Counted from the first letter of the stretch, positions 12,683 to 17,983 are shown. The stretch: DNA of 32,000 nucleotides from an uncultured archaeon (GCA_964510585.1 CAZECW010000113.1:31948-63947), one strand, 5' to 3'. Translations and numbers: made by a program. The notes: generated by a model from the letters alone, not told the origin.

Positions 12683-12822
12683 AACTTTTTGATTCTTTTT
12701 TACTTTTTAAAAATAAAATCAGAACCTTTTTATTTCCTCGGCATCCTCTCTAACAGGACGAAAACTTTATTTTCCATAAAACTCGCAGCATCACCTCTAT
12801 TCTGAAAAAGGGAGGATTGATT

Positions 12823-14004
12823 TTGGACGTTGAGAAAATTAGAGAGGATTTTCCCGTAACTAGAGAGTGGGCCTACTTTAACACGGGTTATTATGGCCCC
12901 CTGCCTCGCCCAGTTGTACAAGCTATGAGCGATTTTTTAGTGGAATGTATGTGCACTGGACAAGGAAACTGGGAAAACTTGTTCGATTTTGAAGAGAAAA
13001 AAGAGAGGACAAGAATAAAACTGGCAAACATGCTGGGAGCCTCACCAGACGAGATTGCATTAACTAGAAGTACTACTGAGGGCTACAACCTAGCATTGCA
13101 GAATATTGATTGGAAGAAAGGAGACGAAATAATCATCAATAGTGTAGAGTATCCACCTAACCGCTATATATACAACTTTCTAGTCGAAAAGTTCGGAGTA
13201 CAACTCGTAACTGTAGAAGCTGACGAGGAGGGTATCGTCAACCCAGCAGATGTGGAACAAGCCATAACAGAACACACCAAACTCATATCTATGTGCCACG
13301 TTACCTACCACCCAGGAACTATTTTACCCGCGGAGGAAATTGGAAAAATTGCTTCTGAAAACAATATTCTCTACGCTCTGGATGGTGCCCAAGGACCAGG
13401 ATACATTCCAGTAAATGTGAAAAAACTCGGATGTGACTTTTATGCTGTAGCGGGGCACAAGGCTCTCTGCGGACCCGTGGGTACGGGCTGTCTATATTTC
13501 AAAAGGGAGCATGGGGAAAAAATGCAACCACTAATAGTAGGTGAACCATTCCTCTTCGGCGCAGAACCAACCGAAACCATCTCAGAGAAGGGAAGATGGT
13601 TGGCCCCCTATAAGTTTGAGGCAACTTCCCTAAATTATCTGGGGTTCATTGGTTTGGGCGCCGCAATAGACTATATGAATAGAATTGGGATTGAAAATAT
13701 TAGAAGAAGAAACATGATGCTCACTTCCTTTGCAATTGATGAGCTAACTAAGATCCCTAATCTTAAGATTGTTGGTACAAAAGACGTTAATAAAAGGGTT
13801 GGCCTACTGTCCATAGATCTTCCCGGTTACCCTGCGATAGTGTTGATGCCCTTCGCTGCAATAAGGAAAGTTATTTTTAGGCCGGTTAGGGGTAGCATCT
13901 CTCGAATTAGTATACACTATTTTAACACTGAGGAGGAAATCCTGAGAGTGAAGTCTGTCATAGAACAGGCCATTAAACTCTCAAAAATCAGAGAGCTCCT
14001 ATGA
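12823..14004 (+). CDS. Class V PLP-dependent enzyme (NifS/SufS-fold, lacking the persulfide Cys)
   Basis: REDFP...YFNTG, LTRSTTEG, LDGAQ, VAGHKALCGPVGTG (PLP Lys), RISIHYFNTEEEI. GGAGG lies 7 nt before the TTG at 12823 (track start 12817). Confidence 0.88.
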   Translation: MDVEKIREDFPVTREWAYFNTGYYGPLPRPVVQAMSDFLVECMCTGQGNWENLFDFEEKKERTRIKLANMLGASPDEIALTRSTTEGYNLALQNIDWKKGDEIIINSVEYPPNRYIYNFLVEKFGVQLVTVEADEEGIVNPADVEQAITEHTKLISMCHVTYHPGTILPAEEIGKIASENNILYALDGAQGPGYIPVNVKKLGCDFYAVAGHKALCGPVGTGCLYFKREHGEKMQPLIVGEPFLFGAEPTETISEKGRWLAPYKFEATSLNYLGFIGLGAAIDYMNRIGIENIRRRNMMLTSFAIDELTKIPNLKIVGTKDVNKRVGLLSIDLPGYPAIVLMPFAAIRKVIFRPVRGSISRISIHYFNTEEEILRVKSVIEQAIKLSKIRELL

Positions 14005-14140: not shown

Positions 14141-14205
14141 GATTTAATTATTTGTTTAGTTGTGCAATATCCGTGCAGAACCGTAAGTAAAACCGAGGTA
14201 ATAAG

Positions 14206-14499
14206 ATGATAGTAATAGAACTATTCTATTCCAAGAACTGTCCCTACTGCCCTGCGGCCAGGAAAATGATTGAGGAATCAGTCCAAGAAATAGAAAAGGC
14301 ATTTAACGAATGTATAATAGTAAATGAAATAGATGTGGGAACAAAAACAGGCCGCGAAAAGGCAAAACTGTATCAGGTGGAGGGCGTACCAACCATTGCG
14401 ATAAATGGTTTAGTGACTTTTGTGGGAGTCCCACCCAGCACCCAATCCCTAGTAACCGCAATTAGAAAATTCATAGACCCCAATCAAATATATGTATAA
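14206..14499 (+). CDS. Thioredoxin/glutaredoxin-like redox protein (CPYC)
   Basis: FYSKNCPYCP, GVPTIAING..FVGVP (cis-Pro loop). GAGGT lies 6 nt before the ATG. Confidence 0.92.
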   Translation: MIVIELFYSKNCPYCPAARKMIEESVQEIEKAFNECIIVNEIDVGTKTGREKAKLYQVEGVPTIAINGLVTFVGVPPSTQSLVTAIRKFIDPNQIYV

Positions 14500-17193: not shown

Positions 17194-17558
17194 ACATCCT
17201 ATAACCAGCTCAACAAAGTTATTCCATTTTTCATCTATTTTCTTTCACAAATTTAGAGAAGCAATAATCATACTCTTGCAGGATTAAGTTAACTCCATTT
17301 TTAAAAAATGAGGAAATCTCAGTTAAAAATAGGTATTTGGAGACTAATCTTGACTGGGGCGATGCGGGTTGGCAACTATATTTTAATCGTTTTTTGAGAC
17401 TTGAAAAATGAACTATAAATTTTTCAGTCTGGAAGCCAAACCTAATGAATCCATAAAATAGGGTGAGGAAGGATTATATAGGACTAATTATTTGTACTGT
17501 TAACGTTGATTTAGTAACCGCGAACAAACTTACCTGAAACTTTGGAGTAGTGATTATT

Positions 17559-17903
17559 TTGGATATAACCATTACACAGATGGCACTAGAATACATTGCC
17601 AAAGCGTCGGAAACAATTTCCAACAGCAAAGAAAAACCAGCCTTAGCCATTTGGGCGGATAGAGTCTACACTTGAGGCGGTAGCCGGGTGGAAATAAGGT
17701 TGGATGTGTATCCTGAAAATGAAATCCTAGAAGTTGAAGGATTTGAAAACAAGGGTAATTTGAATGGCACTGATATACCGCTCTACATACACAAAAACGC
17801 TTATGACTTCCTGCCGGAGAAACCGAACATTGACTGTTCAGGACTTCTCTTAAAGAGACTATTTATCTCCAACTTTACACCCGTACGCTTTGGACGATGT
17901 TAA
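17559..17903 (+). CDS. Probable selenoprotein of HesB/IscA-like fold (in-frame TGA 17673-17675 read as Sec39)
   Basis: TTG start after GGAGTAGTGA. Translation: MDITITQMALEYIAKASETISNSKEKPALAIWADRVYT-U-GGSRVEIRLDVYPENEILEVEGFENKGNLNGTDIPLYIHKNAYDFLPEKPNIDCSGLLLKRLFISNFTPVRFGRC (114 aa). Both halves match HesB-type motifs by eye. The track shows only the post-TGA half (17688-17903). Confidence 0.78.
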
Positions 17904-17907
17904 ATAC

Positions 17908-17983
17908 GGGGAAAGGAAATGATTCATCTCCCAAAAGTATAAAGGGATGATAATCAGACGGACAAGCACCGTCAAAATTCCCC
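17908..17983 (+). promoter_or_regulatory. Structured 3' UTR element, candidate SECIS
   Basis: Outer stem GGGGAA/TTCCCC encloses hairpin TGATTCATCTC...GGGATGATAATCA (A-rich loop) and hairpin GACGG-ACAAGCA-CCGTC. It begins 4 nt after the stop of the UGA-containing ORF. Confidence 0.45.

Follow-up and report, generated by a model that had tools for sequence, protein, structure and literature searches.

A single gene with an in-frame TGA lies at positions 17559-17903 (+ strand) of a 32,000-nucleotide stretch of archaeal DNA (GCA_964510585.1, CAZECW010000113.1:31948-63947), the whole of which is referred to here as the window. On translation, the gene comprises 114 codons, with the TGA as codon 39. 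A TTG at 17559 opens 38 sense codons, which run to the TGA at 17673-17675, and the same frame continues for 75 codons to a TAA at 17901-17903. The codon before the TAA is TGT (17898-17900), so that Cys114 is the last residue. A Shine-Dalgarno-like GGAG was read from the sequence at 17544-17547 (+ strand), with the TTG start 11 nucleotides (nt) downstream. This arrangement matches that described in an earlier note on this DNA, in which the gene was proposed to encode a HesB/IscA-like selenoprotein. In the alignment of the family, six more distant homologues have an ATG start in the column of the TTG; an alternative start is the GTG at 17550, which is conserved and lies three codons 5' of the TTG. 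Gene calling with translation table 11 produced two fragments only, 17550-17675 and 17688-17903, and public records hold either unnamed or hypothetical fragments of 41 and 68-78 amino acids (aa) or artefacts in which TGA was translated as Trp (W). No tRNA genes were found in the window.

The host, an Asgard archaeon from hot springs, belongs to the Jordarchaeia/Freyarchaeia group and has a genome of 3.78 Mb (96% complete). Because TGA ends 298 of the 1457 long frames in this genome (~20%), it serves there as an ordinary stop codon and is not reassigned. In addition, the long conserved genes of the window are intact under table 11 and contain no internal TGA.

Two full-length homologues of 118 aa (58-61% identity) were retrieved in the first search, both with W at the TGA column. 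The DNA of both showed that the stored protein is obtained solely when TGA is translated as W. When 400 Asgard genomes were searched with a six-frame profile, the family was found in 14, and each match contained exactly one TGA. These 14 genomes were all six of the genus, all five of the sister family and three distant ones. One distant member of the protein family comes from Ca. Helarchaeota. Thirteen copies are intact; they come from at least four Asgard lineages and are 28-97% identical to the window protein. The 14th is a truncated remnant. The TGA falls in one alignment column in all 13 intact members, and a C-terminal Cys is present in 12 of them. TGA-GGC-GG is invariant in the DNA alignment, in which many nearby third positions vary through synonymous codon drift. 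The ratio of nonsynonymous to synonymous substitution (dN/dS) was 0.05-0.5 in the 37 codons 5' of the TGA and 0.10-0.32 in those 3' of it, synonymous sites being close to saturation; judged by these ratios, both halves of the gene are under purifying selection. Contigs from four further hot-spring runs (three studies) carried 1-22 differences in the stretch, none of them at 17673-17675. No RNA data set usable for the locus turned up: two runs labelled metatranscriptomic gave multi-kb contigs across it and are for that reason uninformative on transcription. The earlier note had counted Trp in homologues and an unconserved TGA as signs against selenocysteine (Sec); the Trp residues turned out to be TGA codons, and the TGA was kept in every intact homologue.

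An exhaustive profile search of 1.84 billion representative proteins gave 10 matches: N-terminal fragments ending before the TGA, C-terminal fragments starting ~10 residues after it, read-throughs with TGA translated as W, and one repeat-driven false positive, a protein of 1887 aa with seven matched stretches (P0010). The second search, with a diverse alignment, returned nine proteins, none of them named and none with Cys at the Sec column. A search for homologues with either TGA or Cys at residue 39 had been proposed in the earlier note; TGA forms were found and Cys forms were not, and the Sec aligns with Cys only at the level of fold or profile (IscA). As far as these sequence searches reach, the family is restricted to Sec-using Asgard archaea and always has Sec, never Cys.

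Two copies depart from the usual form. The remnant (L031:1405-1734, G116:C56) has unrelated sequence in place of the N-terminal half and its Sec codon, a TGA at a Trp position and no C-terminal Cys; a Sec insertion sequence (SECIS) element can still be recognised, and SepSecS is kept in the genome. In the other (L029:1492-1845, G112:C153), the usual G-x-C-stop end is lost and the frame enters the GUGA of the gene's own SECIS element. This altered end may be a real variant C terminus, or it may have been caused by a frameshift or a sequencing error close to the 3' end.

The 3' untranslated region (3'UTR) of the gene is conserved and, in the RNAalifold consensus, folds with compensatory changes that include the outer helix. 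The complete SECIS element, delimited by RNAalifold and by a covariance model (R1), extends over 17908-17983 (+ strand) as a three-way junction, whose outer helix pairs 17908-17912 with 17979-17983. Its main component, identified by published type I rules and by covariation, is an eSECIS-like type I hairpin at 17916-17955 (+ strand), which begins 15 nt past the TAA and ~245 nt past the UGA. The base of this hairpin is a 2-bp helix (17916-17917/17954-17955) with a bulge AAU. The core consists of AUGA (17919-17922) opposite AA (17952-17953), with the pairs G.A (17921/17953), A.A (17922/17952) and U.U (17923/17951). Above it stand an upper stem of 7 bp (17924-17930/17944-17950) and an A-rich apical loop of 13 nt, CCAAAAGUAUAAA (17931-17943). 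A second small hairpin, GACGG/CCGUC with the loop ACAAGCA, lies within the junction at 17957-17973 (+ strand), and four of its five pairs covary across lineages.

Huang 2024 (PMC11227280) describes Asgard type I elements with a GA_[G/A]A core (usually AUGA_GA), an upper stem of 7-15 bp with no more than two mismatches, and a loop of 8-20 nt that begins with unpaired adenines. The hairpin at 17916-17955 agrees with each of these rules, for core, stem and loop. The core is AUGA_GA in a 97%-identical strain and either AUGA_GA or GUGA_GA in the other lineages. Across 13 sequences, 97.8% of cells were paired, compared with 40-55% when the partners were slid. The two sides changed together in 11 of 14 SECIS pairs, and five of the seven upper-stem pairs were compensatory, the upper-stem sequences being entirely different between lineages. 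None of 500 shuffles reached the observed covariation.

The model R1 was built solely from the SECIS elements of this selenoprotein family. With default filters, it gave the window element 91.8 bits and the next match in the genome 14 bits; no convincing match beyond the target was found genome-wide. With filters off, in 54 kb of control loci, the top match was an frhD SECIS (12.5 bits), and the selD SECIS came third (10.9 bits). In the same genome, the SECIS elements of selD and of the two frhD genes are likewise closed by a helix and carry a second hairpin, whose loop is AAGC-like. It seems that SECIS elements in this lineage form three-way junctions, in which a second hairpin with a 7-nt loop separates the kink-turn hairpin from the closing helix. 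Besides the window element, those after selD and the two frhD genes were noted in this form, at ~15779-15870 of contig C76, ~29649-29740 of C150 and ~54406-54497 of C193 of the host genome (G000). The window element resembles the Asgard eSECIS-like type I elements in its 3'UTR site, AUGA...[G/A]A kink-turn core, 7-bp stem and 13-nt loop. It differs from type I elements as described in the available text of PMC4989117 and PMC11227280 in its covarying second hairpin and three-way junction.

The target, selD and both frhD elements were all among the matches of our own type I SECIS pattern, but these numbered 369 in the genome, and the pattern is too permissive as stand-alone evidence. No SECIS family was matched when the window and two homologous loci were scanned with Rfam at E<=10. 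The Rfam SECIS models are eukaryotic or bacterial. Rfam likewise gave no match for the Loki SECIS elements, according to Mariotti 2016 (PMC4989117).

The earlier note had suggested a look for selD, PSTK, SepSecS, SelB and tRNA-Sec in the genome, and all were found, the tRNA-Sec as a sub-threshold candidate. The host encodes SelD (228 bits, with an in-frame TGA of its own), SepSecS (512 bits), a PSTK-like kinase (207 bits) and EFSec/SelB (302 bits), as well as two FrhD/MvhD genes with two TGAs each. SepSecS, the PSTK-like kinase and EFSec lie on one contig together with the tRNA-Sec candidate (G000:C146:17140-17245, - strand; L065:1501-1606), which is ~1.1 kb from SepSecS; its UCA anticodon lies in the anticodon loop CUUCAAA, and its variable arm is long. 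The D-arm region, 14 nt in the model, is here a stretch of 33 nt, which may be an intron or an extended D-arm. At E<=0.001, no tRNA-Sec was found in the genome; the candidate appeared solely at a relaxed threshold. Among the 14 family-bearing genomes, SepSecS was above the cut-off in 12 and truncated at a contig end in one more.

ARAGORN found only five to six tRNAs in the 96%-complete genome, and a tRNA found by Rfam (L064:1501-1594) has an insertion of ~22 nt after the anticodon stem, which suggests that many tRNA genes of this genome are intron-containing or atypical. In selD (G000:C193:53368-54288, L001), the Sec TGA lies in a G-U-S-C-K motif, and an insert of 30 nt, palindromic and with a TAA in frame, separates the conserved NDVY and A(M/I)GG motifs.

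For the fold of the protein, AlphaFold2 gave a mean predicted local distance difference test score (pLDDT) of 75 with three sequences. With the 14-sequence alignment, the model was a single domain with a pLDDT of 92.2 and a predicted template modelling score of 0.84, and all five models were at or above 90. The TGA codon (17673-17675, + strand) corresponds to Sec39 at the tip of the beta2-beta3 hairpin. In an exhaustive VIA-align structural comparison with 48,161 chains, the best matches were IscA (1r94, Z 8.7, 94 residues aligned at 3.0 A), SufA (2d2a, Z 8.5), DsrR (2k4z, Z 8.0) and IscA with a 2Fe-2S cluster (1x0g, Z 7.0), followed by two putative Fe-S biosynthesis proteins (2p2e, Z 6.7; 2qgo, Z 6.2) and HI1723 (2apn, Z 6.1). 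After chains of this IscA/SufA/DsrR type, the next match had a Z of 3.4. Every Foldseek match in the PDB and AFDB was of the IscA type. A sequence search of the PDB with the family profile gave nothing meaningful. When the family was compared by hhalign with ten real Asgard IscA proteins (E 5.3e-5, probability 67%), the Sec column was placed on the Cys of their GGC(A/S)G motif. The models thereby show a predicted A-type carrier (IscA/SufA/HesB) fold, with Sec39 at the position of the invariant cluster-ligating Cys, as the earlier note had held. Its second structural claim, that a single terminal Cys replaces the CGCG tail, fits the C-terminal Cys of the 12 members.

At the level of sequence families, the relationship is remote. 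The window protein matched no Pfam or NCBIfam family above cut-off and scored 12 bits with PF01521. PF01521 gave weak collinear matches in nine of the 14 members (best 22 bits, E 2e-4, below the gathering threshold of 26.3 bits). The best-scoring named family, NF041239, gave collinear matches in eight, covering profile positions 1-90 of 91 (best 22.2 bits, E 1e-4, below the cut-off of 40 bits). TIGR01911 (cut-off 66.35 bits) matched none of the 14 members at E<=10, and nothing at E<=0.1 in the 11 genomes of the order. Thus, the HesB/IscA likeness proposed earlier stands at the level of fold (Z 8.7-6.1, against 3.4) and does not extend to membership of PF01521 or TIGR01911 by their cut-offs. 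By sequence, the protein belongs to a separate family, remote from PF01521, TIGR01911 and NF041239.

The family shares its fold with IscA/SufA/ErpA (PF01521) and the Cys-less DsrR, with 87-96 residues, nearly the whole chain, aligned. As in IscA, Sec39 falls on the first invariant Cys, and the tail thiol corresponds to the CxC tail. Unlike IscA, the family has Sec for Cys, one terminal Cys for CxC(G), a longer hairpin after the Sec and longer beta-strands, and it scores below the Pfam cut-off. The three Cys of A-type carriers (GGC(x)G plus CxC) are represented by Sec as the first and by one terminal Cys; Cys114 (17898-17900, + strand), which is proposed to act with Sec39, takes the place of the CxC motif at the C terminus of IscA. 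NF041239, the "CC/Se motif family (seleno)protein" (Moor_selen_rel), is of similar size (~90 aa) and includes selenoproteins. The present family differs from it, as compared by profile and description only, in having no Cys beside its Sec (T/S/G-U-G/R/S) and hence no CC/CU motif there.

The Sec position of TIGR01911 is one that we take to be the conserved Cys of the HesB domain. Like this family (HesB_rel_seleno of Methanococcales and anaerobic bacteria), ours consists of small proteins (~90-115 aa) related to HesB/IscA with a single Sec. The HesB-like selenoprotein of M. maripaludis was confirmed by 75Se labelling. A 2026 review (PMC13188914) lists 11 archaeal selenoprotein families, among which the HesB-like one is TIGR01911 with the motif UxGP. 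In contrast, the motif after the Sec is here U-[G/R/S]-[G/S/T]-[S/V/T], without Pro. The present family further differs from TIGR01911 in its conserved terminal Cys, in the absence of detected Cys-form homologues, and in a SECIS element that is eukaryote-like and not of the GAA_A type.

Several explanations of the locus without Sec were weighed. That it is a pseudogene, in which TGG (Trp) or TGT/TGC was mutated to TGA and only a dead gene or the annotated fragments remain, is scarcely credible and was rejected: the W at the Sec column of two homologues in the first protein alignment and the truncated remnant in one genome would fit it, but those W residues are TGA in the DNA, the TGA persists in all intact members, even at 28% identity, both sides have dN/dS values well under 1, a covarying SECIS is maintained in the 3'UTR, and independent assemblies and runs agree on the TGA, so that an assembly artefact is unlikely.

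It is also extremely unlikely that two small genes are present, a 41-codon open reading frame (ORF) at 17550-17675 and a 71-codon ORF that starts with GTG at 17688 and ends at 17903. Gene callers yield exactly these two, and the GTG lies 13 nt past the TGA. However, the two parts invariably sit side by side in one reading frame, with only the TGA and four codons (GGSR, or RSSR in relatives) between them, and those codons are conserved although they would be noncoding. Nor is a start conserved at the GTG, whose column holds ATA, ATC or GTA in relatives. Moreover, the halves are predicted to fold as one compact domain (pLDDT 92), with a beta-hairpin that spans the TGA, and this joint domain matches full-length IscA over ~94 residues.

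A third explanation is that the UGA is read through without Sec, by near-cognate Trp, Cys or Arg at a leaky stop or because TGA is reassigned to Trp, and that the 3'UTR structure has another purpose. The use of a TGA=W code by gene callers on short contigs speaks for it. It is nevertheless very unlikely, given the role of TGA as a regular stop in this genome and the long conserved genes free of internal TGA. In addition, the 3'UTR element fits the Asgard SECIS rule and resembles the frhD and selD SECIS elements, the family is confined to genomes with Sec machinery, and the recoded residue stands at a catalytic or ligand Cys position and not at a Trp position.

Taken together, the comparisons confirmed, far beyond chance, that 17559-17903 is a single gene for a predicted 114-residue selenoprotein. 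The conserved TGA, the covarying SECIS element after the stop and the presence of the Sec machinery bear out the earlier assignment of the UGA to Sec, and on this sequence evidence the product is very probably a genuine selenoprotein. The joint claim of Sec recoding at UGA39 and an IscA fold, biochemical function excluded, is held with almost the same assurance. UGA39 would be decoded by an archaeal/eukaryal-type system of PSTK, SepSecS, EFSec, SelD and the tRNA-Sec candidate, directed by the Asgard eukaryote-like SECIS hairpin (kink-turn, AUGA...AA) in the 3'UTR.

A number of observations weigh against the reading of the gene as a Sec-containing relative of the A-type carriers. The core of the window element is AUGA_AA and not the commoner AUGA_GA; this variant is documented, having been described in Mariotti 2016 (PMC4989117) and Huang 2024 (PMC11227280) for genes of Lokiarchaeia/Helarchaeales and Sifarchaeia. 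The tRNA-Sec candidate scored 22.6 bits with RF01852, compared with a gathering score of 47, and its D-arm region is atypical. SepSecS was not found in one family-bearing metagenome-assembled genome (MAG; G114, 92% complete). No homologue with Cys at the Sec column was found among the 1.84 billion representatives or in a collection of 5.8 billion proteins, and the Sec/Cys pair is therefore uncorroborated by homologues. Each chain has two candidate ligands, not three. A replacement A-type carrier is not compelled, because most Asgard genomes lack both the family and canonical IscA. Finally, the gene neighbourhood is not conserved between lineages, and the unannotated upstream genes of two families are unrelated.

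In the window, a class-V aminotransferase gene (cysteine desulfurase/selenocysteine lyase-like, PF00266) lies at 12817-14004 (+ strand) and a gene for a 97-aa thioredoxin-like protein at ~14204-14497 (+ strand). The pair is located 3.5-5 kb upstream of the selenoprotein gene on the same strand, and this linkage occurs within the genus only. An unannotated 407-aa ORF and a glutamate dehydrogenase gene lie between the thioredoxin-like gene and the selenoprotein gene.

For the function of the protein, three proposals of rising probability were considered. The most far-reaching is that it is an obligately selenium-dependent homologue of the A-type carriers, Asgard-specific, with no Cys counterpart and with a three-way-junction SECIS, which would be either the first Fe-S or iron carrier with a selenolate ligand or a trafficker of Se (perselenide) to SelD or cofactors. 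This proposal is unlikely as a whole.

A true A-type Fe-S carrier, in which two Sec and two C-terminal Cys of a homodimer would hold Fe or a 2Fe-2S cluster that is passed to apoproteins, is a somewhat better but still doubtful proposal. The fold and the ligand position are the same as in IscA/SufA, the 11 genomes of the order yielded no canonical PF01521 protein, and the aminotransferase and thioredoxin-like genes lie upstream in the genus. However, each chain would offer only two potential ligands, compared with three in A-type carriers, and the neighbourhood links do not hold outside the genus. There is also no gap to fill: PF01521 occurs in 5 of 151 Asgard genomes sampled, which suggests that A-type Fe-S carriers are missing from most Asgard archaea. 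In addition, obligatory Sec without Cys forms is more typical of redox chemistry than of cluster ligation.

We tentatively favour, with a confidence somewhat short of even, a redox or chalcogen (S/Se) relay that is based on a selenenylsulfide and built on an IscA scaffold, over a Sec-ligated Fe or Fe-S carrier. Sec39 and Cys114 would form the active pair. This relay is preferred because the Sec is obligate, the candidate ligands number two, the C-terminal Cys is of the resolving type, and most Asgard archaea appear to do without an A-type carrier.

The family is apparently new to the published Asgard surveys of 2016, 2021 and 2024, as far as their available text goes; there, they name only SelD, FrhA/VhuU, HdrA, FrhD, Prx-like, AhpF-N-like and DsbA-like selenoproteins. 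Huang 2024 (PMC11227280) identified seven Asgard selenoprotein families by homology to known ones, and none in the text available is HesB-like. As reported by Sun 2021 (PMC9723677), three selenoproteins (HdrA, Prx and MvhD) occur across Sifarchaeia and Jordarchaeia, with 19-25 predicted SECIS elements per Jordarchaeia MAG. Such surveys are blind to the present family because they start from known families or from Sec/Cys pairs, and here there is neither a Cys form nor a match to known models. The gene would thus show a continuing need for SECIS-first or TGA-aware profile searches.

The gene would add a further family to the Asgard selenoproteins. In the archaea closest to eukaryotes, a selenoprotein with a HesB fold is a parallel to the HesB-like one of Methanococcales and bears on whether the methanogen and Asgard selenoproteomes have a common ancestry. 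In addition, an all-Sec IscA-like protein would be a compact model for the role of selenium at the ligand position of an Fe-S carrier.

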